This document shows, piece after piece, positions 22-53,206 of a stretch of DNA of 64,000 nucleotides. Location of the stretch: contig JBBROJ010000004.1 of NCBI GenBank assembly GCA_038229495.1, positions 9,320-73,319 of the forward strand, given 5' to 3'. The notes beneath the pieces were generated by a model. The model was not told the origin of the DNA. It did no database searches and was given only the letters and a program-made list of their open reading frames with translations. Every line of letters begins with the position of its first letter. Within the stretch, counting starts at the first letter, position 1. Both the position numbers and the translations under genes were made by a program. This stretch comes from Chthonomonadales bacterium (GTDB taxonomy: Bacteria; Armatimonadota; Chthonomonadetes; Chthonomonadales; CAJBBX01).

Positions 22-1078
22 TCAACGATTACCGGAAGACGGCCTCCGACCGGCCGAAAACATCGTTGTCGCGCGAGGAGCTGGCCCACGAGATAAAGCG
101 GTGGTCGGCGGAGTACGGCATAGACTGCGGCGGTTAGGAATTTTGTTCGCTTGAGCAAATAACCTGGACATTTCACTTCCAAGTAAATCATTGCGCTGAT
201 GCGTAAATCGGTCGACCTGTTCTGGCATTGTTTGTCATGTGGATGCCTTTTGCGCGCCAGGCGCGGGCAGAGACGGGTCTGGGGGCGGCCCTAATTCGGA
301 TATAAGAGTTTCCAGTTCTCGACCTTCGAATAGTAGGCTCCGAGATCATCTCTTGACAAGAACGATACAGATGTAAGGACTGCCTCAGGGTAAAGAGGTG
401 CTCCGGGCGATAGTCGCCTTCTAACGACTTTTCAATCTCTTCCGGGGTCGCCCGTATGCGCACCATCGATACATGGCATAGGCTGGCAAGCGTATGACGG
501 TTTCGTTCGCCCGCCAAATTGGCGTCTACTATCGCCAACCCGCTTTTTCCGACGATGTCGGCGATGACGGTATGCAGGAGAACATTCATCTGGGTGAGCG
601 ATTTCTGCAACCTATGAACATGACTGCTCGCCTGTTCTACCAGATTGGCGCGATGGCGCATCACCGTGCGGATCGCGCATATCTGCTGTTTGGGGCGGAA
701 GGATGCGTTCAAGAGACCGAACGAGAAGAGACGTTGAATCCAGACCGCGTCTTTAACATCCGTCTTGCGTCCGGGCACGTTCTTCAGGTGCCTGGCATTT
801 ACCAGGCAGACGTCGATTTTATGCGCCTCCAGGATTTCAAACAAAGGGACCCAGTAAACCCCCGTGCTTTCCATCGCCACTTCCTTGACCCCTCGTTCAA
901 GGAGCCACTGGGTCAGACTGTGAAGGTCCTGCGTGAAGGTGGGGAAGTGGCGTACGATGCATTCGCCACGGGCCTCATGGACGGCGACATAGATTTCTTC
1001 GGCCCCAATGTCGATGCCTGCAACGTTGGCTTTGATCTCAGGTAGGGTCTCCTGAATAGATTCGATTCTGGCGGTCAT
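22..1078 (-). pseudogene. IS110-family transposase, disrupted remnant
   Basis: ATG at 1078 (MTARIES...). The N-terminal DEDD/RuvC-like IS110 domain is present (AGIDIG, MESTGVYW, TDVKDAVWIQRL), as is the inter-domain region (EGDYRPEHLFTLRQSL). After ...SCQEMISE (about nt 340) the similarity continues only in another frame (ELETLISELGPPPDP...GSEMSR, ORF 22..228), and the helix-hairpin-helix segment seems partly deleted. The remnant reaches the window edge. Confidence 0.6.
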
Positions 1079-1704
1079 TTTTTCTCTCGTCTCTCGGCAA
1101 ACGAGGATACATTCCGTCGATAAATGTTGGTAATCTTCCAAAACGGGTTCTGTCCGTCTAATGTGGCAAACAGAGCTGACACTAATGAGAATCCATTCGA
1201 CGGAAAACCATGCTGAACATCGGGCTATAGAACGCACCAGTGACAGGCCGGGCTCGGTTGTATCCTGACTTTGCCGGCAATCATTTTACCAGCCCACACG
1301 TAATGGGGGAGTTACTTTGAGAGAAATCTTGCCCCGCAAGTTGGGATGCTGAACAGTTATGCGGCACGCGGAGGCGCGTGAAGGATAAGGAAATGGGGGT
1401 AAAACACGTACAGTAGTCCACGGATCAATTTGTCGGGTGAATTAACCGGGGACAGAGTTGTCTAGACCCTTGATGCCAGTTCCTGGAAACTAGGAATCGT
1501 CGAATTGCAAAGAGAACTCGAACGTACACAGCTGTAGACTTCCTATCCTGGGCGCAGGCTCTTCGCCTCTCCCTCTCATTGCCCTCTCCGCTTTGCCGTA
1601 TCGCAATCGCCTTTCACTTCCACAAGATCCCTTCGCTTTCGCGCCGTCGTACGAATATGTTAGGCGCAGCAAAATTTTGAATTTCTCGCCCGGAGGCCCG
1701 GCCC

Positions 1705-2482: not shown

Positions 2483-2592
2483 TTACGCCGGACGATCCTG
2501 TAGGATTAGTATCTGTTTAAAACGTAGTTGTCCCCGTAGTGATCACTATCTGCCTAAAACCGCGGAATCCCCGCCCGCGAAGGGGCTGTCAA

Positions 2593-3189
2593 ATGGCGTC
2601 AAATTCTGGTTTCGCCGAGATTGGAATCGAGGACGGCAGCCAAAGGCTCTACGGAGCGCTGGTTCAAATGAGTCAGGAAGGCGCGTTAATACGCCTCGAA
2701 CGCGCCCCCTCCTCAGCGCGCGCCGGTCCCGTGCCTTCAGGATCCTCTGCTTCCCTGACTATTGTAACGGGGAGCGCGATGTTCACCGCAACGGCGCGAA
2801 TCGTATCGGAATCGGCCGGCGATATCGCGATTGTGTTCAATTCCAGCCTGCATAAGGAGCAGTTGCGCTCCGAGGAGCGTTACGCTTGTGAGCTGTCGGT
2901 AATGTACAGGGCAAGGCATACGGACAGCCGCGCGGGAGCGTGGAGAACAGGATCGACTTACGAAGTGAGCGTGGGCGGCTTTTGTATGAAGGCGGATCGC
3001 TGCGTGGAGGAGTCGAAGCTTTTCGAAGTCTGTTTTGTATTACCGAATGATGAGGAACAGGCTCCGGTCCGATCGGAAGCGCGTATCGCATACCAGCGCG
3101 CGTGGGCGGACGGTAAAGTGGCCGTCGGTTTCGACTTCACCTCGATATCGGCCCGAGACAAGATGCGAATCCTTCGGTTTATGAATTAA
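2593..3189 (+). CDS. PilZ domain protein, tandem paralogue
   Basis: ATG 2593 (MASNSG...) is preferred over the ORF-track start at 2539. RxxxR is RSEER. EVSVGG is an Asp->Glu variant of (D/N)xSxxG. Same length and layout as 1808..2482. Confidence 0.7.
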
Positions 3190-3249: not shown

Positions 3250-5838
<2,589 letters not shown>

Positions 5839-5858
5839 ATGGGTCTCCGGAACGGAAG

Positions 5859-6036
5859 GTGTTCAGGTATTCGGGTGTTCAGGTATTCGGGTCGCTGGGT
5901 CAATGGGTCGTTAGGTCGTTGGATCGTTGGATCGTTAGGTCGTTGGATCGTTAGGTCGTTGGATCGTTAGGTCGTTGGATCGTTAGGTCGTTGATTCGTT
6001 CTTCCGACTTCCGTCTTCCGACTTCCGTCTTCCGAC
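5859..6036. repeat. Composite short-period tandem array in the clpX-lon spacer
   Basis: (gttcaggtattcgggt)x2, then about 12 units of RTCGTTRG, then (cttccgW)x5. Read in lon orientation: GGAAGNC array -> CNAACGA array -> CCGAATACCTGAAC array -> lon ATG. Confidence 0.9.
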
Positions 6037-7462: not shown

Positions 7463-7495
7463 AATGGCACCCCCGTGTCAGTTAACAGTCGTCAT

Positions 7496-7538
7496 TGATC
7501 AGTGGTCAGTCCGGATAGCTCTGACTGACCACTGATCA
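7496..7538. repeat. Perfect 16-bp hairpin (ATCAGTG unit family) in the clpP-clpX spacer
   Basis: tgatcagtggtcagtc / gactgaccactgatca with an 11-nt loop, followed by ctgacaa x2. Confidence 0.85.
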
Positions 7539-7565
7539 CTGACAACTGACAACCGTATTGTCGGT

Positions 7566-8219: not shown

Positions 8220-8231
8220 TGGGAAACTCCT

Positions 8232-8304
8232 ATCAGTGGTCCGTGGTCGGTGATCGGTGGTCAGTTCGGACTTTGCTGATCACTGATCGCCGACCACTGA
8301 TCAC
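8232..8304. repeat. Imperfect hairpin of ATCAGTG/GGTCGGT units in the tig-clpP spacer
   Basis: atcagtggtccgtggtcggtgatcggtggtcag ... ctgatcactgatcgccgaccactgatcac. The right arm overlaps the tig stop codon. Confidence 0.7.
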
Positions 8305-9602
8305 TCGGTTTTCGCGGGTACATCCACGATCTTTACGGTTTCGAAGAGATGGTCGCGCAGCTTGCGCTTGATGATAATATTTGTTACTTGCGTACGGCGT
8401 TTCTCGTCGCGGAAGAGGGTGCGCGCGTCTTCGTCGGAGAGCTTGTTCTGGACGGCGAGAAGGGCGAACTCGCCCGCCAGCTCCCCGTCGGTCACCTGGG
8501 TATTCAGCTTTTTGGCCAATTCGCGCAGAATCAGGACGCTCCGCACGCGATCTACAGCATTGGCTTGCAGCTTCTCGCGGTGTACCTCCTCGGTTTGCCC
8601 GGTCGCCTCCAGATACTCTTCATACGTCATTTTGCGGTTCTGCATTTCTTGGCTCAGCTCGTGCGCCTCGTCCTGCATCTCCTGCTCTACCATGACGTGC
8701 GGATATTCCACGGTGGAGCGCTTGATAAGCTCCTCGATAATTCGGCTCTCTACGACGCGGTCGGAAAGGTCCTTGATCTGGCCTTCCTGATTCTCTCGGA
8801 TAGCTTCTCTAAGTTCCTCGGCAGTTTTGAAGGGGGTAACCTGCTCCACCCACTCGTCCGTGACTTCCGGCAGCACCCGCTGATTGATGGTGGCGACATT
8901 CACGTCGAAGTGCGTGTTCTTGCCCGCGCGCTCGGCGTCCTGGTGATCCTCCGGATAGGTGAGGTCGAACGACCTCTCCTCGTCGGGCATCATGCCTAGA
9001 ATCTTGTCGTCAAATCCCGGAATGGATTCGCCCACTCGAATCAGGGTCCGGCGGGGCTGCGTCTGCGGCTCGTGCCCCTCAATATTCTCGGTCATCTCCG
9101 CAATCAGCACATCGCCCAATTGCACGCCCCTGCCGTCCACTTTCTCGGTTCGCGCGTACTCGCCGCGCAGCGATTCTATCTGGCGGTCTATGTCCTCGTC
9201 GCCTACCTGAAAAACGGGACGCTCGACGGATAAATCCTTATATTCGCCCAGCTCCACGTGAGGCGGCAGTGGAACGACGGCCTTGAACTGCCACGGCTCA
9301 CCGTCCGCGAGGTCCGAAAACTCGACCTCGGGATCGGCGAAGGGAGTAACCTCTTCCTTCTCAAGCGCTTCACGGTAGGCGGGCGCGGCGACAAGCTCCA
9401 TGACGCGCTCACGGACCTTCTCCTGGTTCACATAGCGCTCGACCATGCGGCGAGGCGCCTTGCCAGGGCGGAAGCCGGGTACATTGGTGTACTGCCCAAA
9501 CTCGCGGTAGGCCTGACCGAAAGCCTTGGAAATGATATCCGGCTCAATTTGAATATCGAGCGAAATCGTGCAGGGGTCAATCTGCTCTTTTGTGACCTGC
9601 AT
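8301..9602 (-). CDS. tig: Trigger factor
   Basis: 433 aa. Ribosome-binding motif GFRPGKAP, then a PPIase-like middle domain and a C-terminal arm domain. Sits in the conserved tig-clpP-clpX-lon order. Confidence 0.95.
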   Translation of the reverse strand: MQVTKEQIDPCTISLDIQIEPDIISKAFGQAYREFGQYTNVPGFRPGKAPRRMVERYVNQEKVRERVMELVAAPAYREALEKEEVTPFADPEVEFSDLADGEPWQFKAVVPLPPHVELGEYKDLSVERPVFQVGDEDIDRQIESLRGEYARTEKVDGRGVQLGDVLIAEMTENIEGHEPQTQPRRTLIRVGESIPGFDDKILGMMPDEERSFDLTYPEDHQDAERAGKNTHFDVNVATINQRVLPEVTDEWVEQVTPFKTAEELREAIRENQEGQIKDLSDRVVESRIIEELIKRSTVEYPHVMVEQEMQDEAHELSQEMQNRKMTYEEYLEATGQTEEVHREKLQANAVDRVRSVLILRELAKKLNTQVTDGELAGEFALLAVQNKLSDEDARTLFRDEKRRTQVTNIIIKRKLRDHLFETVKIVDVPAKTE

Positions 9603-10740: not shown

Positions 10741-10780
10741 GGAAGTCGGAAGTCGGAAGTCGGAAGAACGACCCAACGGC
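10741..10780. repeat. GGAAGTC x3-4 followed by CGACCCAACGG
   Basis: Same unit families as 5859-6036. Fills the spacer between two minus-strand genes. Confidence 0.85.
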
Positions 10781-12335: not shown

Positions 12336-12406
12336 TAGGGGCGAATAAATCGCAGTGAAACCGTTGATCGTTGCACCCAACTCTCGCTGCGATTTATTCG
12401 CCCCTA
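12336..12406. repeat. Perfect 20-bp inverted repeat (taggggcgaataaatcgcag) with a 31-nt loop
   Basis: 12336-12355 is the exact reverse complement of 12387-12406. It is nested inside a weaker outer inverted repeat (gtaagaaac ... gtttcttat, about 12301-12434). Confidence 0.85.
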
Positions 12407-17003: not shown

Positions 17004-17888
17004 ATGGCGCTCTGCCGCTACGAAACATATCTGCCGGCCGTTGGGCGGCAGAAACGCTGGGGATGGGTTCGGGACGGCAGTGTATATCCGCTCGAAGACC
17101 AGGCTGTCGCGCAGCGCTTTCAGTCGCCCGACGCCAATGGGCTTCAATCGCTGGCGGCTGCCGCAATCCCGGAATCGATTCCGTTTTCGGATCTCGACAC
17201 AGCGCCGGGTCGATACGGACATCCTTCGCTCGTCGCCCCGCTGACCACCGGCATGGAGGTCTGGGCAGCGGGTGTCACGTACGAGAGCAGCAAGTTTGCG
17301 CGCATAGCCGAATCGACGGAGGGCGGCGACTTCTATGCCAAAGTCTATGTCGCGGACCGGCCCGAACTTTTCTTCAAGGCCACTCCAGGCCGCACCGTGG
17401 GCCCCAACGATTTCGTCAGAATCAGGCGCGATTCGAAGTGGAACGTGCCGGAACCGGAACTTGCCGTTGTCGTCGCCGCATCGGGTGAAATTCTGGGCTA
17501 CACGGTCGGGAACGACATGTCGTCGCGCGACATCGAGGGCGAGAATCCGCTCTATCTGCCGCAGGCGAAGGTGTACACAGCCTCCTGCGCGCTGGGACCA
17601 GTGATTGTGCCTGTTGGAGAAGTTGACCCGCAGAACCTCGGAATTGTGCTCACGATCACGCGGGGCGGGGAGACGGCCTATCGCGGCGAGACATCCACCG
17701 CGCGCATGAGAAGGCGCGTGGACGATCTGGTGGATTGGTTATTTCGCGAGAACGAGTTCCCGCACGGAGTCGTCCTCTTAACTGGAACCGGCCTCATCCC
17801 TCCCGACAACTTCACTCTACAACCCGGCGACGAGATTGCGATTCAGATCGAGCAGATTGGCACATTGCGTAATCAGGTCGCGGCTTAA
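17004..17888 (+). CDS. FAH-family 2-dehydro-3-deoxy-D-arabinonate dehydratase (KdaD)-like
   Basis: ATG 17004 (MALCRYE). Strong resemblance to KdaD: PELFFKATP, WNVPEPELAVVV, ENPLYLPQAKVY, LLTGTG. The upstream 159 codons of the ORF-track ORF overlap the previous gene and are rejected. Confidence 0.75.
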   Translation: MALCRYETYLPAVGRQKRWGWVRDGSVYPLEDQAVAQRFQSPDANGLQSLAAAAIPESIPFSDLDTAPGRYGHPSLVAPLTTGMEVWAAGVTYESSKFARIAESTEGGDFYAKVYVADRPELFFKATPGRTVGPNDFVRIRRDSKWNVPEPELAVVVAASGEILGYTVGNDMSSRDIEGENPLYLPQAKVYTASCALGPVIVPVGEVDPQNLGIVLTITRGGETAYRGETSTARMRRRVDDLVDWLFRENEFPHGVVLLTGTGLIPPDNFTLQPGDEIAIQIEQIGTLRNQVAA

Positions 17889-17895
17889 CGGCGGC

Positions 17896-18309
17896 TTGTC
17901 CACAGATGACACAGAGGAAGACCAGAGAACGTCGAAGGATTCCAATGAGCGCGATCCGCAGACTTATGCAGTCATTGGCGCAGCAATGGAAGTCCATCGC
18001 GTACTCGGATACGGCTTTCTGGAGGCTGTATATCAGGAAGCGCTTTCTTTGGAATTCGCGTGCCGCAGCTTGCCATTCATCCGCGAAGTGGCGCTTCCCG
18101 TGAAGTATAAGAGCTCCGTACTCGCTTGCGCCTATCGCGCCGACTTTGTTTGCTTCTGCGAAATCATCGTAGAGATCAAGGCATTGGACAACCTGTCAGG
18201 CTCACATCAGGCTCAGGTTATCAATTACCTCCGCGCAACCGGATTCAAGCGCGCTGTCCTACTCAATTTCGGTACGGGGCGGCTCGAGTATACACGCGTC
18301 GTTCTTTAG
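17896..18309 (+). CDS. GxxExxY family protein (PD-(D/E)XK-like)
   Basis: Signature GFLEAVYQEAL, and C-terminus NYLRATGFKRAVLLNFG. TTG 17896 is the first start codon after the upstream stop and is also the first base of the 5' inverted repeat. Confidence 0.8.
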   Translation: MSTDDTEEDQRTSKDSNERDPQTYAVIGAAMEVHRVLGYGFLEAVYQEALSLEFACRSLPFIREVALPVKYKSSVLACAYRADFVCFCEIIVEIKALDNLSGSHQAQVINYLRATGFKRAVLLNFGTGRLEYTRVVL

Positions 18310-19740: not shown

Positions 19741-21723
19741 ATGATGCAGACAAAGGACCGTATGCCCTCACGAATTTTTACAGCTTCGCTCGCGTTCTGC
19801 CTAGCTTCGCTCACGCAAACTGGACGTGCCCAAAACATCGCGGACGTATGGCCTCCCGGAGCGCCCCGCGGCGGGAAGGCGACTGTACAGATCGAAGGCT
19901 CGGGTTTCGTGGGCGCTAAAGCGGCGCTCATCAGTGGGCAGGGCGTGAAGGCGCAAATTGGCGCGCCTGCCGCAAACGGCAATTCGATTCCGCTGACGCT
20001 CGACATTGCGCCGGACGCCGCGCCGGGCCCTTACGAGGTGCGCGTAGTGACGCCGGGCGGCCTGTCGAATCCCGGCTACCTGTGGGTCGGGACATTCAAG
20101 GAGACCCAAGAGAAGGAACCCGATAATCAGCCCGCCGAGGCGATGAAGCTGGACAATCTCCCGATCACCGTGAATGGCCGCGCCAACAACCCGGAGGACG
20201 TGGACTGGTATCAGTTCCACGCGGACGCGGGCGAAACGTTCGTATTCGATATCTGCGCGAACCGGCTCTATGCGCCGCTCGACCCTTTCCTAGAACTGAG
20301 GGACAGCGAGGGAAGGCTGCTCGGATCCGCGATGGAGGGCTATGATCGCGATCCGCGCCTGATTCATACTTTCAAGAAGTCGGGCGAATACAGATTGCAG
20401 GTGCGTGACACGCTCTATCGGGGGGGCGGCAGTTTCATCTACCGGCTGACGCTGGGCAAGATTCCGGTGATTACGTCTCTGACACCTGGAGGCGGGCGGC
20501 GGGGGCAGACCCTGAACGCCGCAGTCGAAGGCTACAATCTGGGCAGCATGAAGACCGTGACGATTCCTCTTCCCGCCGACATGCCGGAGAATCGCACGTG
20601 GTACGCCCTCGTGGATACCCCTAACGGTCCCGCGCTGCCCGTGGCGGTATTCGGGGATGACATGGCGCATACCGTCGCACCGGCCGGGGCGGCCACGCTG
20701 CCGAAAGCCGGTCTGCCCGCCGCGATTGATGGCCGCCTGAACGCCGCGAAAGAGACGCACCTCATTCATTTCGACGCGGAGGCCGGCAAAGCGTATCAGA
20801 TTTCCGTGGCGGCGCGCTCTACTGGCTCGCGCGCGATTCCCTATCTTCGAATCCTGAATGGAGCCGGCAAGGAGCTTCTCAATACCGAGGATCAGATTGG
20901 CCGTGACCCGCAGATCGTCTTCACGCCGCCCGCCAATGGCACGTACAAGATTGAGTTGAGCACGATCGACGCGAAGGGCGGTCCGGACTACTACTACCGC
21001 CTGTTCGTTCGCCCGCCCACAATGCCGGAATTTCGGCTCACCGCTTCACCGGATAATCTCGTGCTCGGCCACGGCCAGACACTGGTCGTGAACGTGGGTC
21101 TGGAGAGGCGCGGCGGCTTCGGCGGGCCTGCAACCATATCTGTGGAAGGGCTGCCGGCAGGCGTAATGGTGAATCCGTTGGTAATAGGTCCCGGCCAAAC
21201 ATCTGGTATCCTAACGCTAACCGCCGCGACCGATGCCGCGCCAGCCAACGCTCCGCTGCGAATCGTGGCCGAGTCGGCGGACGTGAAGGGACCGGATGGA
21301 AAGCCTTTTCGGCTCGGCGCGCTCGTGCTTGCCAACCTGCCGCGTCCGGGAGAGGGCCAGGTCGTTCCGCGCCCGGTGCATTTCCAGATGGCAACCACGA
21401 CCGCCGCCGTCCCGCTATACACATTGACTCCGGAGTCGACGCAGATTACCCTGATGCCGGGCCAGACCGTGATGGTGAAGGTCCGCGCGAATCGCCGCCC
21501 GAACGATAACGCCGCAAATCCCGCCATTGCCTTGACGCTGGCGAATCTGCCGCCCGGAGTGAGCGCCGAGACGCCCGCCATCCCCGACAAGCAGACCGAA
21601 ATCACAATCAAGCTCACTGCCGCCGGAAACGCGGGTCCGTTCTCCGCCAGCGCACTCCTCACCGGCAAGCTCGGCAACGACGTTCAGCCTGCCCCCGCGA
21701 TTCAGGTTACGGTAAAGAAATAG
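19741..21723 (+). CDS. Secreted protein with pre-peptidase C-terminal (PPC)-type beta-sandwich domains
   Basis: Signal peptide. DVDWYQFHADAGETFVFD...GEYRLQVRD is a typical PPC domain and a second similar module is present. Starts 12 nt after the previous gene. Confidence 0.65.
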   Translation: MMQTKDRMPSRIFTASLAFCLASLTQTGRAQNIADVWPPGAPRGGKATVQIEGSGFVGAKAALISGQGVKAQIGAPAANGNSIPLTLDIAPDAAPGPYEVRVVTPGGLSNPGYLWVGTFKETQEKEPDNQPAEAMKLDNLPITVNGRANNPEDVDWYQFHADAGETFVFDICANRLYAPLDPFLELRDSEGRLLGSAMEGYDRDPRLIHTFKKSGEYRLQVRDTLYRGGGSFIYRLTLGKIPVITSLTPGGGRRGQTLNAAVEGYNLGSMKTVTIPLPADMPENRTWYALVDTPNGPALPVAVFGDDMAHTVAPAGAATLPKAGLPAAIDGRLNAAKETHLIHFDAEAGKAYQISVAARSTGSRAIPYLRILNGAGKELLNTEDQIGRDPQIVFTPPANGTYKIELSTIDAKGGPDYYYRLFVRPPTMPEFRLTASPDNLVLGHGQTLVVNVGLERRGGFGGPATISVEGLPAGVMVNPLVIGPGQTSGILTLTAATDAAPANAPLRIVAESADVKGPDGKPFRLGALVLANLPRPGEGQVVPRPVHFQMATTTAAVPLYTLTPESTQITLMPGQTVMVKVRANRRPNDNAANPAIALTLANLPPGVSAETPAIPDKQTEITIKLTAAGNAGPFSASALLTGKLGNDVQPAPAIQVTVKK

Positions 21724-21877
21724 TGCCGAGTGCTGAGTGCTGAGAGAACGTCAAGAACACGGCGCAACGCGGCTAAAATATCGGCGCAACGCGGAGGTTG
21801 CTCCGTACTTGAGGCGAGCGGCCACACAGGGCAGCCCCTACTCATCACTCAGCACCCAGCACTCAGCACCCAGCGCT
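21722..21877. repeat. Inverted TGAGTGC arrays flanking a core that carries the GGCGCAACGCGGAGGTTGCTCCGTAC motif
   Basis: agtgccgagtgctgagtgctgag (21722-21744) versus ctcagcacccagcactcagcaccc (21848-21872). The 26-nt motif is at 21783-21808, with a half copy at 21761-21772. Confidence 0.8.
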
Positions 21878-23000: not shown

Positions 23001-23055
23001 AGCAACGACCAACGACGGAAGACGGTAGTCGGAAGCCCGACTACCCGACGACTCA
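23001..23055. repeat. CAACGAC x2 + GGAAGAC/GTAGTCGGAAG units with a small hairpin
   Basis: agcaacgaccaacgacggaagacggtagtcggaagcccgactacccgacgactc. gtagtcgg/ccgactac forms an 8-bp stem. Confidence 0.8.
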
Positions 23056-23063
23056 TCAACCCC

Positions 23064-23950: not shown

Positions 23951-25288
23951 ATGTCGAACGACACCAACCGGCGGCTGTCGGATCTGGAGGTTCACGACCT
24001 TCTGCGTGAGTACAAGCTCACTCGCCGGCAGGCGATTCGAGACCGCATCGTAATGCAATATACCAATCTCGTGGAAAGCATAGCAAGGCGCTTCGCGGGG
24101 GCGGCTGAACCAAGTGAAGATCTGGCGCAAGAAGGATATATCGGGCTAATTACTGCCGTAGACGGATATGACGCCGACAAAGGAGTCAAATTCAGCACCT
24201 ACGCTACTCACTTTATTATCGGGCAGATTAAACATCACCTGCGTGACAGGGGCAAAATCATAAAGGAGCCCGCCTGGCTGCAAGAGCTTAACCAGAAGGT
24301 TACCAAAGTCATTGAGTCGCTGTCGCAAGAGCTTGGCCGCCCGCCTACGAATAGTGAGATAGCAAAATTGATGGGCATGCAGGAAGAGGCCATCGCGGAC
24401 CTCATGACGAGCAGAGAGGTCTTCAAAGTCGCGTCATTGGACGGTGGAAATGAGCAGGATGACGAGGCGTCTTCGACCTATGACATGGACAGAGTAAAGG
24501 CGGATAAAGCCGTCGACTTCCAGCTGCCGGTCGAGGAGAAGCTCGTGCTCGAAACGGCCCTTCGAAAGCTCAAGGAGCTGGAACAGGCCGTGGTCCAGGA
24601 GTTCTATTACCGGGACAGAAACCAGACGGAGATCGCCCGTAACATGGGAATCTCCTGCAACTACGTATCGCACATTCTTCGCAATTCGACGAAGAAGCTG
24701 AAAAAGATCATGGTCACCGATGAGATCAAGGAGGCGCAGATGGCGATGAGCCTGGTGCGCCGCCGTGGAGACTCGCTGCCCGTGATCTCAACGGAACAGA
24801 CCGTCGTGGATGGCTTGACCAGGCTCTACAACCGCCGCTACTTCGACAGTCGTCTCGAAGAGGAGCTGAGCCGCGCAAGCCGCTACGAAGCGCCGCTGTC
24901 CATACTGCTGATAGAACTTCAGGGGTACGAGCAGATCGGCCGGGCTTATGGTACGATTCGCGCTGAGGAGACGCTTCGGAGCGCGGCAGACATAATCCGC
25001 GAAACGGTTAGAAAAGCGGACATCGTCACGCGGTTCGACAATTGCTGCTTTGGCCTGGTGCTTCCGCACACGGGGACCCAGGTTGAGGTCGTGGTGAATC
25101 GATTGACGGACAACCTGGGCGAGTGGCTTGTTTCGGAGGGGCATCTGACAAGCAGAGCGCCTCTGGCCCTCAAGCTGGGGTGGGCGTGTTATCCGCGGGA
25201 CGCCGAAGACGGCGCAGCGCTTCTAGCGCACGCCGCCGAATCTATCGCGGCCGTTGAGATTGCAGGCCAGACCGCTATCGCGGCCTAG
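23951..25288 (+). CDS. Group-3 sigma factor (SigB/F/G-like) fused to a degenerate GGDEF domain with a retained RxxD I-site
   Basis: Aa 1-255 carry region 2 (DLAQEGYIGLITAVDGYD, FSTYATHFIIGQIKHHLRD), region 3, and region 4.2 (QTEIARNMGISCNYVSHILRNSTKKLKK). Aa 286-445 form a GGDEF fold (DGLTRLYNRRYF). The GG(D/E)EF site reads DNCCF (nt 25037-25051). RKAD lies exactly 5 residues upstream of it. Confidence 0.85.
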   Translation: MSNDTNRRLSDLEVHDLLREYKLTRRQAIRDRIVMQYTNLVESIARRFAGAAEPSEDLAQEGYIGLITAVDGYDADKGVKFSTYATHFIIGQIKHHLRDRGKIIKEPAWLQELNQKVTKVIESLSQELGRPPTNSEIAKLMGMQEEAIADLMTSREVFKVASLDGGNEQDDEASSTYDMDRVKADKAVDFQLPVEEKLVLETALRKLKELEQAVVQEFYYRDRNQTEIARNMGISCNYVSHILRNSTKKLKKIMVTDEIKEAQMAMSLVRRRGDSLPVISTEQTVVDGLTRLYNRRYFDSRLEEELSRASRYEAPLSILLIELQGYEQIGRAYGTIRAEETLRSAADIIRETVRKADIVTRFDNCCFGLVLPHTGTQVEVVVNRLTDNLGEWLVSEGHLTSRAPLALKLGWACYPRDAEDGAALLAHAAESIAAVEIAGQTAIAA

Positions 25289-25313
25289 CAGATTAATTCG
25301 TAAATTAAGCTGT

Positions 25314-25368
25314 CCGGGCCGGCGCCTTCCGAAAAGAGTTTTCGGGGGCGCCGGTCCGGGCATTTTCT
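25314..25368. terminator. Long GC-rich hairpin plus T-run between convergent genes (bidirectional terminator)
   Basis: ccgggccggcgcc..ccgaaaa-gag-ttttcgg..ggcgccggtccgg, followed by gcattttct. Confidence 0.6.
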
Positions 25369-25390
25369 ATGTTTCCGGTTTATCGGGCAG

Positions 25391-29723: not shown

Positions 29724-29976
29724 AAATCCCAATGTTGTTGAAAGGACGCTTGGCTGCACCCAAAAATGGCCTGCTGCCGGGTTTGCGCGTGTCGTACTAC
29801 GCGTGTAAAACCGGTGTCTGGGGAGCCTTCGGCCAAACGTCCGCCGGACGGTAAACACATTCAATATACATCAAATCAGCATTTTCCCACCCGCGAGGGC
29901 GTTCGGCGGCTTGTCCGCCCCCCAGACACCGGTTTTACACCGGTGGTGGGATCAGCATTCAACAACAATGGGATTT
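29724..29976. repeat. About 250-bp element with nested inverted repeats (MITE-like or a structured RNA)
   Basis: Outer inverted repeat aaatcccaatgttgttgaa (29724-29742) versus 29958-29976, 18/19 matching. Inner perfect 21-bp inverted repeat gtgtaaaaccggtgtctgggg (29803-29823) versus 29920-29940. Confidence 0.8.
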
Positions 29977-31644: not shown

Positions 31645-32034
31645 ATGCTTGACCGTCTCCTCAACACAGGCACTTTCCAGGCAGCGCAAGGCGCGTTGGA
31701 CGGCCTCTCCGCCCGGCACGCGGCCATTGCGGATAACCTCGCAAACGTCAATACGCCCGGCTATAAGCGAAAAGAGGTCCCTTTCGAGGATACTCTTGCC
31801 CGCGCTGTCAAGGACCAGACCTCGCAGTGCACCGGTGCGGCGAGCGGCCCGGTCCGTCCCTTTACGCCGTGCGTGACGCGAGACACCGATTCCCAGGCCC
31901 GCGCCGACGGCAACAATGTAGACATTGAAGCAGAGATGGTCCGCCTCGCGGATACCAGCCTGCGCTACGAAACGCTGACTCAGTACGTAGGCGGATTCTT
32001 CTCCGGCCTCAAGGCAGTTATTAACGCGAAGTAG
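31645..32034 (+). CDS. flgB: Flagellar basal-body rod protein FlgB
   Basis: ATG 31645 (MLDRLL...). NLANVNTPGYKRK rod motif. First gene of the cluster. Confidence 0.9.
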   Translation: MLDRLLNTGTFQAAQGALDGLSARHAAIADNLANVNTPGYKRKEVPFEDTLARAVKDQTSQCTGAASGPVRPFTPCVTRDTDSQARADGNNVDIEAEMVRLADTSLRYETLTQYVGGFFSGLKAVINAK

Positions 32035-32102
32035 GAAGTAGGAAGCCGGAAGACGGAATTCAGAAGAACGGCCCTGCTTCCGACTTCCGACTTCCGGCTT
32101 CC
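32034..32102. repeat. GGAAG array plus inverted CTTCC array (hairpin) in the flgB-flgC spacer
   Basis: ggaagtaggaagccggaagacggaattcagaag ... cttccgacttccgacttccggcttcc, then AGGAG and the flgC ATG. Confidence 0.85.
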
Positions 32103-32557: not shown

Positions 32558-32574
32558 GTAGTCAATTAGTCAAT

Positions 32575-32635
32575 GGGTCAACGAGTAAGTGAACGGCCTC
32601 CCTATTGACTCATTTACCAATTTGCTCGTTGACCC
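32575..32635. repeat. GTCAATG/GTCAACG-family hairpin in the flgC-fliE spacer
   Basis: gggtcaacgag (32575-32585) pairs with ctcgttgaccc (32625-32635). Flanked by gtcaattagtcaatg and ttgactcatttacc units. Confidence 0.7.
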
Positions 32636-32657
32636 GTTAGTGGAAAGGTTTATCACG

Positions 32658-32984: not shown

Positions 32985-32990
32985 GAGGGA

Positions 32991-33077
32991 GGACGGAAGA
33001 CGGAAGACGGAAGACGGAAGATGCGGGTCTCGGGTGGCCCAGGCTTCCGGCTTCTGACTTCCGGCTTCCGACTTCCG
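32991..33077. repeat. (GGAAGAC)x4 plus an inverted (CTTCCGN) array forming a hairpin in the fliE-fliF spacer
   Basis: ggacggaagacggaagacggaagacggaaga ... cttccggcttctgacttccggcttccgacttccg, about 22-nt loop, then GAGGGG and the fliF ATG. Confidence 0.9.
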
Positions 33078-34782: not shown

Positions 34783-34788
34783 ATAGGA

Positions 34789-34876
34789 GGGGTGTTCGGT
34801 ATTCAGGTATTCGGGTGCGGGATTCAAAGCGCTCCGCATCTCCCCAAAACCTGAAAACTTGAATACCAGAACACCC
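34789..34876. repeat. GGTGTTCAGGTATTC-family hairpin in the fliF-fliG spacer
   Basis: ggggtgttcggtattcaggtattcgggtg ... cctgaaaacttgaataccagaacaccc. Same unit family as 5861-5892 and 36680-36756. Confidence 0.8.
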
Positions 34877-34893
34877 TCTTCCGGAGGAAGCTC

Positions 34894-36624: not shown

Positions 36625-36756
36625 GACGACGGAAGTCGGAAGTCGGAAGACGGAAGTCGGAAGACCAACGACCCGCAGACCACCAAATACCTGAACACCA
36701 AATACCCGAATACCTGAACACCCGAATACGCGAATACCCGAACATCCTAAACACCC
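36625..36756. repeat. Composite array (GGAAGWC)x5 - CCAACGACC - (AATACCYGAAYACC)x5 abutting the fliI ATG
   Basis: Same neighbour order as the lon-upstream array read in lon orientation. No Shine-Dalgarno sequence is visible before the fliI ATG. Confidence 0.9.
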
Positions 36757-38100: not shown

Positions 38101-38292
38101 GGTCGTTGGGTCGTTGGCCCCCCGGCCCGCAATTCTGGGGGAGATGCCCCCCGGCCCCCAATTCTGGGGGAGATGCCCCCCGGCCCCCAATTCTGGGGGA
38201 GACGGCATCGGTCGTTGGGTCGTTGGGTCGTTGGGTCGTTGGGTCGTTGGGTGGGGGCGGCTTCCGGCTTCCGACTTCCGGCTTCCGACTTC
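38101..38292. repeat. Composite array: (GGTCGTTG)x2 - 3 x 29-nt G/C hairpin unit - (GGTCGTTG)x5 - (CTTCCGN)x5
   Basis: 29-nt units ccccccggcccSSaattctgggggagaYg at 38118-38146, 38147-38175 and 38176-38204, each containing ccccca-attc-tggggg. Confidence 0.92.
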
Positions 38293-38750: not shown

Positions 38751-38911
38751 GTCAATGAGTGTTGAGTGTTGAGTGCTGGGTGCTGAGTACGCAGCAGCCT
38801 CCGTGTTGCGCCGTTCCCATTGACCCAACGACCCAACGACCCAACGACCCATTGACCCATTGACCCATTGACCCATTGACCCATTGACCCATTGACCCAT
38901 TGACCCAACGA
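38751..38911. repeat. TGAGTGY array, reverse copy of the 26-nt motif, then 12 x 8-bp CCCAWYGA units
   Basis: gtcaatgagtgttgagtgttgagtgctgggtgctgag. Motif at 38787-38812 (minus strand). (cccattga/cccaacga)x12 at 38816-38911, ending 7 nt before the ATG. Confidence 0.9.
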
Positions 38912-40230: not shown

Positions 40231-42729
40231 TTGGTGAATCCCACAGTACCTGCCGTTTCCCAGGCAAGCGCTAGCACAGGCGCCCTCGAACAGACGTCCG
40301 CGACTTCCGCTCCCGGCGACATTTCCGATGGAAGTCCCTTCGCAAATGTTCTTGCTCACACCGTGGTTTCGAATAGTACTACCGGAAAGGGCCGTCCCGC
40401 CGCGCGGGGATCGAAGCCAGATCCGAGCGGCTCACCGGCCACCGCGGACGAGAGTGCGGAAGCCGATATGCCCCCGCAAGAAGGCGTACCCTCCGCCAAT
40501 TCGGCGGTCTCAGCTATGCTAAGTGCCGTATTCGCCGGAATCAATCCCGGGCCCCAGGGCCTCGACGTTGTGACGTCAACGAAGGCCTCGGGCTCTTCAT
40601 CCGTCAAGCCGGCATCCTGCACCACGGCACCTGGAGGTACGGAGAAGCAACACGCGCAGCCACTTGTGAAGTTATTCACGCAGCCGATCACTCCCATCAC
40701 TCCCATCACTCCCATCACTCCCATCACTCCCATCACTCCCATCACTCCCATGACTCCCATCACTCCCATCACTCCCATCACTCCCATCACTCCCATGACT
40801 CCCATGACTACCATGATTACCATGACTACCGTGGCAGCCTCAACCGATAACGCGCAATTGGTGGACGCCGTAACTACGACTACGACTACAACCGGGCACA
40901 GCAAGGTCGTAACCGGCGAGCTAAAAGCGCAGACACCGATTCCTCAAACCGGTTCCTATGGGCCCCACGACTTAGATGCAGCAAATGCTGTAACAGCCAT
41001 GTCTGTCTCGGTTCATACCGCGCCAATTAAGCCTTTGCCGGAGATCGCCACAGCGCAGTCGCTTCTTACGCAGACTGCTGGAGTCGAATTTCCGCAGGCA
41101 GGCGCAACCAATAGCGTGACAGGAGAGGTTACAGCGCCGGGAACTTCGATTCCGACACAAAATGAGTCCAAGTCGCAAGCTGCGTCTATCGCGCAGGCAA
41201 CGCCCGTTATGCAGGCAACGCCCAGTGTGCAAGTTGCGCCCAGTATACAGGCTGCGATTATCGCGCAGGCAACGCCCAGTAAGCAGGCTGCGACTATCGC
41301 GCAGGCAACGCCCATTATGCAGGCAACGCCCGTTATGCAGTCATTGCCTGCCACGTATGCCGCGCCCGGTATGGAGGTCGTCTCGAGCATACAGGTCTCT
41401 CCCGGCGTACAGGCAGCATCGGTCGCGGCGCAGGGTTCGCCGCTCACCGCGGACGCGGGAATCAAAGGCATAACAGGCATAACAGCCATTGCAGGCATAA
41501 GCAGGAAGCCGGCGCCGGCGAACGTTACCGCCCCGGACGGACGTACCGGACAGTCAGCGGCTAAAGCCGCAATCTCTCCAGTCTCTCCGATCTCACGTGA
41601 AGCTGATATGCGCCCGGCGAGCCTACCCACCGTGGATCCAGGCGCTCCGTCGAATTCACGTTCACAGCCGATTCCCGCTGGGGCAATTCAGCCGCAGGAA
41701 AAATTGACGCGAACTCTGTTGACGAGTGCGCCGCAGCCCGACAATTCCCAGCCATCGGAGCACACCGCTTTGGGTGTCGCCGCGCCCAAGTCGGCTGTGC
41801 TCGCGACAACAGCGCCGGCCGCTCAACTCGGCGCGCCGGCCCTCATGGCGTCCGAAGCGGCAAACCCGGTTGACCCGCGCCAGGCGCAGACGACTGGACA
41901 AGGGATCAACCCCAATTTGCGGCAAATTCCCGCCGGCGCCCCGGCCATCTCGACCGCGCCCGCCGGCAATCAGACATCCCTGTCGGCTGCCCTGCTTTCG
42001 GCAGCCGTTCCACCGGACAACAGCCGGCCCCTCGACCGAAACTTCGCGATGGAGCGAACGACAATGACGTCGCTCGGAAGCACGGCAATGGCTGCGTCCA
42101 CCATAGGCCAGGCGGCTTTGGGAGAAGAGCAGAGCGCGGCTGATAAAGAGCGCCGCTCTTCCCCCGGACCGGATACCTCCGATCCGAAGCTTGGGCAGAC
42201 GGCGACCACCGGCAGCGCGACCGCCGAGTTCTCTCTCAAGGCCGCCCGAATTGAGGCAGCCGCGCAGCCGCCGCCGCACGACCGAATGCACGTCGTGGAG
42301 CAGGTCATGCAAAAAATGGAGACTTTGCGGCTCTCGCATGGCCACCAGGAGGTGACCGTCCATTTGCGACCCGATCACCTGGGGGACCTTCGTCTTACGA
42401 TCGTCGCCGACGGCCATAACGTCACGGCCACGATCGTGGCGGAGACTGCCGCCGCGAGTGAAGCAGTGAGAGAGGGCCATGAGCAGCTTCGCTCCGCGCT
42501 GGAACAGAAAGGTTACTCGCTTCAGGGGCTCGACGTCTCACTCGACGCCTCATTCAGTAACAGCGGTGGTGAACAGAAGTTCCTGCCCTTTGAGCAGAAT
42601 CAGCAGCCGTCCGGGCCAATGCGATCCTACGCCTCGCCCGACAACTTGGAGCCCGCTATTCACTTGCCTTTGGAAACGCGCTCCATGGTTGTATCGCGGG
42701 GAGCCGGAAGGCTGGACTATCAGGCATGA
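40231..42729 (+). CDS. fliK: Flagellar hook-length control protein FliK (unusually long, repeat-rich)
   Basis: 832 aa. C-terminal Flg_hook domain (VHLRPDHLGDLRLTIVADGHNVTATIVAE). Disordered Pro/Thr/Ala/Gln-rich N-terminal two thirds. TTG/GTG start. Confidence 0.85.
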   Translation: MVNPTVPAVSQASASTGALEQTSATSAPGDISDGSPFANVLAHTVVSNSTTGKGRPAARGSKPDPSGSPATADESAEADMPPQEGVPSANSAVSAMLSAVFAGINPGPQGLDVVTSTKASGSSSVKPASCTTAPGGTEKQHAQPLVKLFTQPITPITPITPITPITPITPITPMTPITPITPITPITPMTPMTTMITMTTVAASTDNAQLVDAVTTTTTTTGHSKVVTGELKAQTPIPQTGSYGPHDLDAANAVTAMSVSVHTAPIKPLPEIATAQSLLTQTAGVEFPQAGATNSVTGEVTAPGTSIPTQNESKSQAASIAQATPVMQATPSVQVAPSIQAAIIAQATPSKQAATIAQATPIMQATPVMQSLPATYAAPGMEVVSSIQVSPGVQAASVAAQGSPLTADAGIKGITGITAIAGISRKPAPANVTAPDGRTGQSAAKAAISPVSPISREADMRPASLPTVDPGAPSNSRSQPIPAGAIQPQEKLTRTLLTSAPQPDNSQPSEHTALGVAAPKSAVLATTAPAAQLGAPALMASEAANPVDPRQAQTTGQGINPNLRQIPAGAPAISTAPAGNQTSLSAALLSAAVPPDNSRPLDRNFAMERTTMTSLGSTAMAASTIGQAALGEEQSAADKERRSSPGPDTSDPKLGQTATTGSATAEFSLKAARIEAAAQPPPHDRMHVVEQVMQKMETLRLSHGHQEVTVHLRPDHLGDLRLTIVADGHNVTATIVAETAAASEAVREGHEQLRSALEQKGYSLQGLDVSLDASFSNSGGEQKFLPFEQNQQPSGPMRSYASPDNLEPAIHLPLETRSMVVSRGAGRLDYQA
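40687..40830 (+). repeat. In-frame 9-bp microsatellite (atcactccc)n inside fliK
   Basis: 16 consecutive units encoding ITPx7-MTP-ITPx4-MTP-MTT-MIT-MTT. Confidence 0.95.
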
Positions 42730-43200: not shown

Positions 43201-43602
43201 ATGGCCGAACCGTTCCGAATCAATGAGCTGCTCATCGCGCCACAAGGACCGCAGCTTTTACCGGCGGCGGGAAGACCCGGGCAGGCAGCCCCCGGCGCGC
43301 CAAGCTTTGCCGACCTTCTCAAGAAGGCCCAATCGCCCGCGGATACCGGCGCGCTCCGGTTCTCCGCGCACGCGCAGACTCGCATTCAATCCCGCCAGAT
43401 TCAGATGGGCGCGGCGGAGATGCAGCGAGTAGAAGCGGCCGTGCAGAAGGCCGCAGGAAAGGGCGCTCGCGAGTCGCTCGTTCTTCTCGACCAGACGGCC
43501 CTTGTGGTGAGCGTGCCCAACCGCACGGTTATCACGGTGGTGGATAAGGACAGTCTCAAACAGAACGTCTTCACCAATATCGACAGCGCGGTGATCGCCT
43601 AG
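43201..43602 (+). CDS. Flagellar operon protein of unknown function (TIGR02530-like, between flgD and flgE)
   Basis: 133 aa. ...FSAHAQTRIQSRQI...VVSVPNRTVITVVDK. Same position as in Firmicute and Thermotoga clusters. Confidence 0.6.
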   Translation: MAEPFRINELLIAPQGPQLLPAAGRPGQAAPGAPSFADLLKKAQSPADTGALRFSAHAQTRIQSRQIQMGAAEMQRVEAAVQKAAGKGARESLVLLDQTALVVSVPNRTVITVVDKDSLKQNVFTNIDSAVIA

Positions 43603-43677
43603 AAGACGGAAGACGGAAGACGGAAGGTAGAAGGTAGAAGCCAACGACCCAACGACCCAACGACCCAACGACCCAAT
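43602..43677. repeat. (GAAGACG)x3-(GTAGAAG)x2 followed by (CCAACGAC)x4
   Basis: Same GGAAG -> CAACGA neighbour order as at 36625 and in the lon-upstream array. Confidence 0.9.
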
Positions 43678-45552: not shown

Positions 45553-45573
45553 TAATCAGGGACCAGAGATAAT

Positions 45574-45634
45574 AGTCAGGGATCAGGAGTCAGCTAACGG
45601 CAATGCCGATGTCCCTGACTCCTGATCCCTGACT
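45574..45634. repeat. Perfect 20-bp hairpin (AGTCAGGGATCAGG family) in the flgE-fliL spacer
   Basis: agtcagggatcaggagtcag (45574-45593) is the exact reverse complement of 45615-45634, with a 21-nt loop. Further degenerate units flank both arms. Confidence 0.92.
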
Positions 45635-45656
45635 CCCAGCTCCCAGGAATAAACAT

Positions 45657-48820: not shown

Positions 48821-48833
48821 GTTGTCGATCAAT

Positions 48834-51300: not shown

Positions 51301-51303
51301 TCT

Positions 51304-53175: not shown

Positions 53176-53206
53176 GCTTACTCGTATTGGTCGGCAGGAA
53201 TACGCA

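Follow-up and report, generated by a model that had tools for sequence, protein, structure and literature searches.

Polar arrays of 7- and 8-nt tandem repeats, many of them paired into hairpins, in intergenic DNA of an Armatimonadota genome close to Chthonomonadales

Tandem repeats of the heptamer type have been reported in cyanobacteria since 1990. Long simple-sequence repeats (LSSRs, with units of 5 to 11 nt) were surveyed by Mrazek et al. in 2007, as summarized in PMC4679880 and PMC4692102, which also describe heptamer-dominated LSSRs in cyanobacteria (the short tandemly repeated repetitive sequences, STRR), Burkholderia, Xanthomonas, and Beggiatoaceae. Here, we analyze 64 kb of contig JBBROJ010000004.1 from a Chthonomonadales bacterium (the window, by which we mean this whole stretch), whose intergenic DNA carries numerous arrays of 7- and 8-nt units. 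According to our analysis, these arrays are heptamer/octamer LSSRs of the STRR/LSSR-like kind in an Armatimonadota genome close to Chthonomonadales, and they are laid out with a marked polarity and often as the two arms of a hairpin.

The closest described repeats are GGGAATC of Xanthomonas and GGGGAYT of Nostoc PCC 7120, reported by Rehm et al. in 2015. That paper (PMC4692102) states that they are biased toward intergenic DNA, that each Xanthomonas genome holds 70 to 75 convergent inverted pairs able to form stem-loops, that the G-rich strand is the coding strand at most 50 bp behind stop codons and the non-coding strand at most 50 bp ahead of open reading frames (ORFs), and that the repeats are enriched between co-directional ORFs and depleted between divergent ones. 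They are also transcribed, and a given intergenic position can carry repeats of another length and sequence in a related species (PMC4692102). In marine Beggiatoaceae, the TAACTGA repeats described by MacGregor in 2015 precede start codons by a few nucleotides, and essential genes are among those concerned; some of the genes lack a canonical ribosome-binding site, a post-transcriptional role has been proposed, and there is one dominant unit, with 2 to 6 copies per set and a single indirect repeat in 170 sets (PMC4679880).

The gene map of the window, built from ORFs, third-position GC content, and Pfam domains, assigns tig-clpP-clpX-lon to the minus strand and, to the plus strand, an extensive flagellar cluster running from flgB to flhB. 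Its Lon is 73% identical to that of a Chthonomonadales metagenome-assembled genome (MAG) and 64 to 66% identical to those of other Armatimonadota, while the named relatives of its ClpP and FlgC are Chthonomonadales or Chthonomonadaceae. Using Tandem Repeats Finder (TRF) with a period of 7 or 8 and at least 3 copies, we detected 30 arrays totaling 1112 bp, against 0 to 1 in each of 20 third-order Markov simulations (about 0.2 expected); for periods of 2 to 6, 10, or 12, TRF returned no array in the window. Of all intergenic bases, 15.7% lie in arrays, compared with 0.3% of the coding bases. A model's sequence-only reading of this DNA had placed them in nearly every gap longer than 50 nt; the proportion is about half, since they occur in 19 of the 40 gaps of at least 50 nt, or in 20 if the hairpin at 45553-45656, made of a 20-nt tandem unit built on the 11-mer AGTCAGGGATC, is included. 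All but two of these 20 gaps (18/20) separate co-directional genes. The arrays cluster in the clp operon and in the flagellar cluster, where three quarters of the operon spacers contain them. At least nine unit families, of 7 and 8 nt, coexist in the window, and octamers are as common as heptamers: GGAAGNC is found at no fewer than 10 loci, GGTCGTTG/CCAACGAC at 7 or more, and CCCATTGA, GAGTGCT, GAATACC, and CCTCATC at two or three each. As is typical of LSSRs, the units stand head to tail beyond chance expectation, overwhelmingly in noncoding DNA, and a limited set of unit sequences recurs at many loci within the window. The analysis upholds the view of the sequence-only reading that the arrays are real, non-random, intergenic, and drawn from a small recurring vocabulary with a preferred order, and the remaining unit families that it named are all present by TRF.

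An origin of the arrays in misassembly or chimerism is effectively refuted. An independent Logan assembly of essentially the same strain (L081) reproduces the three array-bearing stretches 7463-7565, 8220-8300, and 10741-10780 base for base and without an indel, and differs from the window by 2 real single-nucleotide polymorphisms once 18 mismatches at the contig end are set aside. A further contig (L082), identical through 1.8 kb downstream, starts inside the CCCATTGA array (window 38882), and related but different arrays occupy orthologous sites in four other metagenomes. Since L081 and L082 match the window at the arrays, we exclude an assembly artefact; since they represent essentially the same strain, they bear on this question only and not on copy-number change. 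The observation that would speak for an artefact is that short-read contigs of this lineage break in arrays, as L082 does and as does L221, the end of which (8800-8828) lies in a G-rich heptamer array, GGGTGTY, directly after the fliE stop codon. Because of such breaks, array-rich genomes would be fragmented and under-represented in metagenome assemblies. The contig of the Chthonomonadales MAG (L001) starts inside lon.

The arrays obey a polarity. On the top strand of array-bearing spacers, the G-rich array comes first and the C-rich array second regardless of the orientation of the flanking genes, a property that reads the same on both strands. The array nearest a start codon is C-rich and G-poor on the sense strand in 14/14 cases, and the array nearest a stop codon is G-rich on the mRNA in 15/19. 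Adjacent arrays of opposite skew run from G to C in a ratio of 9:0 in the window, of 24:3 at unrelated genomic and metagenomic loci without the same-strain L081 (25:3 in the raw count), and of 10:1 in viral contigs. The one-directional modules, namely, the leaders of lon, of fliI, and of the SLT-domain gene at 38919 and the module upstream of flgE, follow the same rule, and the three leaders are weakly structured in the sense direction (-31, -21, and -11 kcal/mol, compared with -59, -39, and -47 kcal/mol for their antisense strands). The statement of the sequence-only reading that arrays occur in either orientation hides this polarity (14/14 at starts, 15/19 at stops), about which it was silent, as it was about the main structural feature, the pairing of arrays as hairpin arms.

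In about 13 spacers, an array is followed by its reverse-complement array, and the two fold into a stem-loop of 25 to 35 bp. The minimum free energy (MFE) is mostly between -33 and -66 kcal/mol, with weaker values for fliN-fliO, which is degenerate (-21), and for flgC-fliE (-28), and the six hairpins tested against shuffled sequences gave z scores from -2.9 (flgC-fliE) to -8.8. In several of them, 6-bp helices follow one another regularly, each set off from the next by a 1x1 mismatch where the unit is variable. The hairpin spacers, with no strand assigned, are as follows.

7481-7553: clpP-clpX hairpin, (GTCAGTG/ATCAGTG)n plus complementary array; inverted repeat of 31 nt, 87%; MFE -54.4 kcal/mol, z -7.4
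8232-8305: tig-clpP hairpin, (GTGGTCG/GTGATCG)n plus complement; MFE -32.8 kcal/mol, z -4.7
21722-21874: inverted arrays (GAGTGCT)n ... (CACYCAG)n, 97 nt apart (inverted repeat, TRF, fold); the first overlaps the upstream stop codon and the second ends 7 nt before the next start
32028-32102: flgB-flgC hairpin, (GGAAGNC)n / (GNCTTCC)n; MFE -36.4 kcal/mol, z -6.0; the array runs across the flgB stop codon, and the C-rich arm is followed by an AGGAG Shine-Dalgarno sequence
32560-32640: flgC-fliE hairpin, G-rich arm (AGTCAATG)n and C-rich arm CTATTGACTCATTTACC...GCTCGTTGACCC (fold)
32988-33077: fliE-fliF hairpin, (GGAAGAC) x5 / (GRCTTCC) x5 (TRF); MFE -55 to -58 kcal/mol, z -5 to -5.6; 6-bp helices with a 1x1 mismatch every seventh position
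34787-34878: fliF-fliG hairpin, (GGTATTC/GGTGTTC)n / (GAATACC/GAACACC)n; MFE -50.6 kcal/mol; followed by a GGAGG Shine-Dalgarno sequence
45545-45634: flgE-fliL hairpin of AGTCAGGGATC-type units; perfect core of 20 bp, inverted repeat 100%; MFE -49.9 kcal/mol
46182-46293: hairpin downstream of fliL (fliL-fliM), (GGGAAGAA)n / (TTCTCCCN)n; MFE -65.9 kcal/mol
48829-48900: fliN-fliO spacer, (TCAATGGG) x4 and then a degenerate complementary arm; MFE -21.3 kcal/mol in the sense direction
50076-50156: fliO-fliP hairpin, (GATGAGGC)n / (CCTCATCN)n; MFE -38.4 kcal/mol
51228-51304: fliQ-fliR hairpin, (AGGGATK)n / (CATCCCT)n; MFE -39.8 kcal/mol

Hairpins internal to operons are those of tig-clpP-clpX, flgB-flgC-fliE-fliF-fliG, fliL-fliM, and fliN-fliO-fliP-fliQ-fliR. 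A Shine-Dalgarno sequence normally stands between the C-rich arm and the start codon, fliI being the exception. Arrays of this kind can mislead automatic start-codon calls. The longest-ORF start of fliE (GTG, 32589) is over-extended across the hairpin, and alignment with FliE orthologs places the true ATG at 32658; likewise, the positions of the Pfam domains place the starts of fliP at about 50160 rather than 49849 and of fliR at about 51310 rather than 51247, both after the hairpins. Stretch 50076-50156 is deemed intergenic because the FliP domain begins at residue 171 of the long ORF. The FliO protein (48945-50069, plus strand) carries N-terminal SH3_3/SH3_4 domains, an unusual extension for a small flagellar export protein.

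We considered whether the hairpins are intrinsic (Rho-independent) terminators and rejected this possibility, because no array hairpin in the spacers of the window is followed by a U-tract, because a Shine-Dalgarno sequence and a start codon come after the hairpins, and because a terminator scan of the flagellar region gave no enrichment (15 sites, with 18.7 expected). A single weak match, at 48848-48869, touches an array. Ordinary terminator-like hairpins lie instead in the convergent-gene spacer 25289-25390 and at the end of the flagellar operon (53200-53244).

When orthologous spacers of relatives were inspected, the clpP-clpX spacer proved to have conserved flanks, ACCGAYAAT ... ACGGGGGTGCCATT, around an interior that forms a strong hairpin with different arms in three lineages.

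clpP-clpX, window: GTCAGTG / ATCAGTG units, z as listed above
clpP-clpX, L193 (ClpP 91%): CAGCAGT / CAGTGGT units, z -5.0
clpP-clpX, L189 = L192 (ClpP 90-91%): AGACAGCAGCC / GGCTGCTGTCT, z -5.0
clpP-clpX, L190 (ClpP 78%): spacer of 60 nt, no hairpin, z +0.35

Similarly, the flgB-flgC spacer of L221 (FlgC 78%) has GGTGTTCA/TGAACACC arms (-46 kcal/mol, z -7.7) with the same polarity as in the window, and GGTGTTCA, which replaces GGAAGNC there, belongs to a family present elsewhere in the window. The Chthonomonadales MAG shows the same heptamer-array hairpin design with other units. Some orthologous sites keep the layout although their sequence is rapidly replaced, and the phenomenon as a whole is confined to a fairly narrow clade.

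The spacer between clpX and lon illustrates the one-directional modules. Read in the orientation of lon, its arrays are (GGAAGNC)5, (CYAACGAY)11, and (CCGAATACCTGAACAC)2, followed by a GGAG Shine-Dalgarno sequence and the lon ATG.

5858-5892, minus strand: lon leader proximal array, 16-nt unit GGTGTTCAGGTATTCG x2.2, in the sense direction (CGAATACCTGAACACC) x2.2; TRF 100% matches; it ends 20 nt before the lon ATG (5838), with the GGAG in between
5906-5993, minus strand: lon leader middle array, 8-nt unit GGTCGTTR x11 (TRF period 8 x10.9; period 16 x5.5, 93%)
6000-6036, minus strand: lon leader distal array, CTTCCGN x5, in the sense direction (GGAAGNC) x5; TRF 14-mer x2.6, 100%

The distal array is the G-rich half of the module, and the middle array, read in the sense direction, comprises 11 8-mers alternating between CCAACGAT and CTAACGAC, is G-poor, and has a higher-order period of 16 nt. 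The leader RNA is weakly structured in the sense direction (-30.8 versus -59.0 kcal/mol antisense). Of the description given by the sequence-only reading, the order of the three arrays is borne out by TRF; the arrays do not, however, fill the spacer almost entirely, as they take up 179/352 nt, the middle unit has 8 rather than 9 nt, and the last has a period of 16 rather than 14 nt.

Besides its leader, lon contains a module within the coding sequence itself (3250-5838).

4037-4160, minus strand: in-frame insertion of about 41 codons in lon (TRF 4042-4071 and 4119-4139; sequence and translation)

The lineage-specific insertion is a decayed (GGAAGNN)n and then (CCAACGAC)n module in sense orientation, corresponds to Lon residues ~561-601, and sits between the conserved motifs KQVKDHGL and LTITTNAV. 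It was found in 0/12 relatives checked by tblastn, and a search of 5.8 billion proteins returned only fragments of at most 52% identity, none of them with the Lon insertion.

The other modules and leaders of the window, which include all the loci at which the sequence-only reading had seen the same families recur, are the following.

10741-10780, plus strand: (GGAAGTC) x3.7 and then AACGACCCAACGGCC, flanked by two minus-strand genes, namely, the stop-codon end of one for a major facilitator superfamily (MFS) transporter and another of 255 aa; the junction GTCGGAAGAACGA is common to this module and the lon leader
23001-23063, plus strand: short mixed spacer with CAACGAC x2, GGAAGNC x3, and a small hairpin GGTAGTCGG/CCGACTACC (TRF, fold); the sole case with reversed order
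36630-36756, plus strand: fliH-fliI one-directional module, (CGGAAGN) x5, CCAACGACC, (ACCAAATACCTGAAC / CCCGAATAC)n; leader RNA -21.2 kcal/mol sense versus -39.2 antisense
38101-38292, plus strand: composite element between convergent genes, (GGTCGTTG) x2, 29-mer hairpin unit x3, (GGTCGTTG) x5.4, (CGGCTTC) x5 (TRF)
38756-38907, no strand assigned: divergent spacer, (TGAGTGC) x4.7, C-rich for the minus-strand gene, and (CCCATTGA/CCCAACGA) x11.5, C-rich for the plus-strand SLT-domain gene, the leader RNA of which is unstructured (-11.2 kcal/mol per 119 nt; antisense -47)
43602-43676, plus strand: module 3' of the flagellar gene 43201-43602 and 5' of flgE, (GAAGACG) x3.6, (GAAGGTA) x2.6, (CCAACGAC) x4.5
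47736-47788, plus strand: fliM-fliN leader arrays (TCCTAAA)n and (ACCTGAA)n, G-poor (TRF); the 15 nt that separate them from the start codon include an AGGAG Shine-Dalgarno sequence
54597-54733, plus strand: second copy of the composite element in opposite orientation, (CGGAAGN) x6, CCCATCGACC, 29-mer (reverse complement) x2, CCAGCGACCCAAC

The module at 36630-36756 abuts the fliI ATG, and fliI has no Shine-Dalgarno sequence, as the sequence-only reading had noticed. That reading had also called 54597-54733 a reverse-complement form; its plus strand reads GGAAG...CCAAC, and it is reversed only relative to its own genes.

Modules have been copied between sites. Stretch 38101-38292 aligns to the reverse complement of 54593-54733, the unique non-repetitive junction GGGGGAGACGGCATCGGTCG being identical in both and the copy numbers different.

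29-mer: 3 copies in 38101-38292, 2 in 54597-54733
GGTCGTTG: 5.4 copies in 38101-38292, 1 in 54597-54733
CTTCCGN: 5 copies in 38101-38292, 6 in 54597-54733

The fixed neighbor order of unit families reflects such copying of whole modules, which afterwards expanded and contracted locally. Since the arrays have perfect higher-order periods of 14 and 16 nt, we infer from the sequence that they probably grow by slippage in steps of one and two units. The 29-nt unit GCCCCCCGGCCCCCAATTCTGGGGGAGAT (38117-38202 and 54660-54718), embedded in GGTCGTTG arrays, has a small hairpin of its own and resembles a repetitive extragenic palindromic (REP) unit; it found no match in the viral contigs. Compared with miniature inverted-repeat transposable elements, which have terminal inverted repeats, a target-site duplication, and many near-identical copies, inverted arms and unique junctions shared by two copies are found here, and no target-site duplication is visible at the lon insertion. 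Among the 51 ORFs of the window scanned against Pfam, there is no RAYT/Y1 transposase, the sole transposase being of the IS110 type. Its gene (188-1237, minus strand) and an ORF of the PD-(D/E)XK_3 nuclease family (17836-18309, plus strand) are the only mobile-element-like genes of the window.

Beyond the window, (CCAACGAC)3 arrays occur in 106 metagenome contigs of heterogeneous organisms, many of them rich in other 7- to 8-nt arrays. These contigs hold essentially none of the other units of the window (there is one GGAAGNC case), and no orthologous spacers were recovered from them. Because the octamer is shared while the other units are essentially not, the vocabulary as a whole is deemed lineage-specific. 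Arrays of (GGAAGNC) with at least ~3.7 copies were also present in 27 IMG/VR viral contigs. Some high-GC viral contigs (L194, L204, L212, L220, and others in L194-L220) hold 10 to 14 heptamer arrays per 10 to 14 kb, and along a viral contig the arrays are often all of one G or C skew; such contigs suggest that phages or prophages of array-rich hosts share the phenomenon. An analysis of the coding strand in the 27 contigs, which put 72 arrays in coding sequences by crude ORF calls, was unreliable and was dropped.

Compared with the Xanthomonas and Nostoc repeats, our locus has the same convergent pairs, the same placement relative to stops and starts, and the same enrichment between co-directional genes. 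It differs in that no unit matches GGGAATC or GGGGAYT and most families lack a G3 tract, in the many families, the ordered composite modules, and the swapping of families at orthologous hairpins, in the in-frame module of the housekeeping gene lon, and in the phylum, Armatimonadota. Like STRR and other LSSRs, the arrays are heptamer-dominated and intergenic, with several families per genome, a sporadic distribution, and slippage proposed as their origin; unlike them, octamers are as common here, and hairpin pairing and start/stop polarity dominate. Strict membership in STRR does not apply, as the units are unrelated and the host is not a cyanobacterium. The missing ribosome-binding site of fliI recalls the TAACTGA repeats, from which the locus differs by its many units, longer arrays, and pervasive inverted pairing. 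Rfam families match none of the arrays, the sole Rfam match in the window being a tRNA, and our literature search found no paper on tandem repeats in intergenic DNA of Armatimonadetes. Since the same polarity and convergent pairing have been published for GGGAATC, we assign the arrays to the known class of heptamer simple-sequence repeats, as a variant.

REP sequences and bacterial interspersed mosaic elements (BIMEs) of proteobacteria are extragenic, transcribed, hairpin-forming, and often located within operons, with protection of mRNA 3' ends as their likely effect; REP units are imperfect palindromes of 20 to 40 nt and conserved sequence, mobilized by RAYT transposases. The extragenic hairpins within operons and the dispersed copies found here are alike in location, whereas the units are 7- to 8-nt, non-palindromic, tandem, and of many families, only the 29-mer being REP-like. 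The Rickettsia palindromic elements, of 100 to 150 bp, lie in frame in protein-coding genes and have no tandem units; as in their case, a normally intergenic repeat is tolerated in frame here (+41 residues in Lon), in only one intragenic case. The two inverted arrays resemble the two inverted units that form the single hairpin of a REPIN (PMC3116915). CRISPR arrays were rejected, as the 7- to 8-nt units abut without unique spacers and no Cas domains occur in the window. The sequence-only reading was right in setting the arrays apart from CRISPR and from classical REP/BIME elements, there being no conserved palindromic unit of 20 to 40 nt; its implication that they resemble nothing known does not hold, given the heptamer repeats described in PMC4679880 and PMC4692102.

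We favor, with moderate confidence, a reading in which slippage-driven modules have dispersed and now serve as REP-like intercistronic RNA stem-loops, their C-rich halves keeping ribosome-binding regions unstructured. Arrays would grow and shrink by replication slippage in steps of 7 to 8 or 14 to 16 nt, and whole composite modules, a G-rich array and then one or more C-rich arrays, would be copied to new sites. In the layout that survives, the mRNA would be G-rich immediately behind a stop codon, and C-rich and G-poor immediately ahead of a Shine-Dalgarno sequence and start codon. Where the halves are complementary, the intercistronic transcript would fold into an imperfect stem-loop of 25 to 35 bp, which may play the part of a REP/BIME element or of an RNase III site. 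Such a stem-loop would halt exonucleases and mark off or stabilize single cistrons within polycistronic mRNAs, those of tig-clpP-clpX and of the flagellar operons, while letting transcription proceed. Where the halves are not complementary, the C-rich one may serve as a leader free of structure, leaving the ribosome-binding site accessible. Transcription of the arrays, and any effect of theirs on mRNA stability or translation, we infer.

Several observations weigh against this reading. Folding of 12 hairpins gave a summed MFE of -527 kcal/mol for the sense and -558 kcal/mol for the antisense strand, with the sense favored in 5 and the antisense in 7; as there is no asymmetry, an RNA-level model gains nothing from this test, and the hairpins could equally be palindromes at the DNA level. 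The arrays are dispensable, since neither arrays nor hairpins occur in the short, ordinary spacers of L190 and of an Armatimonadales relative (L002). Retention at orthologous spacers is uneven: a hairpin is kept at clpP-clpX and flgB-flgC, with other unit sequences, but L189 retains none at tig-clpP (z -0.7). In L222 (FlgC 83%), the hairpin at flgB-flgC is not made of arrays and is marginal (z -2.1), that at fliE-fliF, G-rich and then C-rich, is marginal too (z -2.7), and none is found at flgC-fliE (z +1.3). To enter a coding sequence and to scatter copies is how selfish DNA behaves, and for the Xanthomonas and Nostoc repeats PMC4692102 identifies no function.

The main rival takes the arrays as purely selfish or neutral DNA, in which repeats originate by slippage, inverted pairs are homogenized by intramolecular template switching (quasi-palindrome correction), spread is by illegitimate copying, and the surviving arrays do nothing useful; the polarity would then arise because purifying selection removes Shine-Dalgarno-like G-rich repeats before starts and C-rich Rho-loading sites after stops. 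This is a serious possibility, although we think it unlikely. It accounts for the lack of folding asymmetry, the more distant relatives without arrays, the fast turnover of unit families between close relatives, the in-frame module in lon, the copies that have common junctions and differing copy numbers, and the similar arrays in many unrelated metagenomic and viral contigs. It fits less well with a hairpin kept at the same intercistronic site in several lineages despite full replacement of its arms, with a very strict polarity (14/14 at starts) that holds across phyla, and with arrays concentrated inside operons rather than across all noncoding DNA. The further alternatives, including the artefact dealt with above, are less likely than either the favored reading or this rival. 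The arrays could be multimeric binding sites for a protein that reads 7 to 8 nt on RNA (of the S1, cold-shock, or CsrA type, as likewise proposed for the TAACTGA repeats in PMC4679880) or on DNA (nucleoid-associated), copy number setting the occupancy. The small recurring vocabulary, the GGA motif that GGAAGNC offers every 7 nt, the recurrence of octamer CCAACGAC as arrays across 106 metagenome contigs of diverse organisms, and the position immediately upstream of starts, as for TAACTGA (PMC4679880), agree with such a role; we consider it improbable all the same, since at least nine unrelated families would need as many readers, families are swapped at orthologous sites, half of the arrays would be sequestered in duplexes, and the genes that adjoin the arrays in the window do not include one for a candidate binding protein.

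G-quadruplex or i-motif elements modulating transcription or translation, as suggested for the GGGNATC repeats of Xanthomonas and Nostoc, are very improbable here. Tandem GGTCGTTG, TCAATGGG, and GGGAAGAA do give G3 tracts with 5-nt loops, five intergenic arrays and the decayed array in the lon insertion satisfy the four-tract rule, and the placement rule is the same as in PMC4692102, but GGAAGNC, GAGTGCT, GATCAGTG, GGTATTC, and the lon-leader octamer contain no G3 tract, and complementary arms would favor a duplex over a quadruplex. With only five or six of ~36 arrays qualifying, we rejected this as a general explanation. Phase-variable contingency loci, in which copy number would switch flagellar and other genes, are hardly credible: although the units are not multiples of 3, many arrays lie in the flagellar cluster, and paralogous modules differ in copy number, the arrays occupy intercistronic positions, with intact Shine-Dalgarno sequences downstream of them, rather than 5' coding regions or the space separating promoter hexamers, and the housekeeping genes tig, clpP, clpX, and lon are flanked too; PMC4692102 draws the same negative conclusion for Xanthomonas.

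Some features of the window lie outside these arrays. The only long arrays with a period that is a multiple of 3 are those coding within fliK (40231-42729), the gene for the hook-length control protein, where a 9-nt unit repeated 14 to 16 times (40687-40830) encodes (ITP)n and an 18/36-nt unit (41175-41340) encodes repeats of the QATPxxQA type. Two inverted repeats are not made of tandem units, one of 23 nt and 96% (TAGGGGCGAATAAATCGCAGTGA), with arms 25 nt apart (12336-12406), and one of 31 nt and 87%, with arms 90 nt apart, in a gap of 424 nt (29796-29947). One ORF (23951-25288, plus strand) joins sigma-70 regions 2, 3, and 4 to a C-terminal GGDEF domain, an unusual fusion of a sigma factor with a cyclic di-GMP synthase, and two genes encode PilZ domains (1808-2482 and 2539-3189).

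A bolder reading, which we regard as doubtful, is a genome-wide "punctuation" code, in which mobile self-expanding modules would furnish every stop codon with a G-rich trailer and every start codon with a C-rich leader, and dedicated machinery (RNase III acting on periodically mismatched duplexes, or a modular protein reading 7 to 8 nt) would cut, stabilize, and translationally insulate the cistrons. If true, this code would be the bacterial counterpart of organellar intercistronic processing elements, and the polarity seen in Xanthomonas, cyanobacteria, many metagenomic lineages, and phage contigs would go back to a single mechanism, widespread and as yet undescribed. The locus is an unusually dense case in a barely studied phylum, with many unit families in one place and a polarity that is found in unrelated metagenomic and viral contigs as well. 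What persists at some of its intercistronic sites is the layout, G-rich and then C-rich and usually a hairpin, and not the repeat sequence, and the question becomes a sharper one, between an RNA-level punctuation or stabilizer element and constrained selfish DNA.

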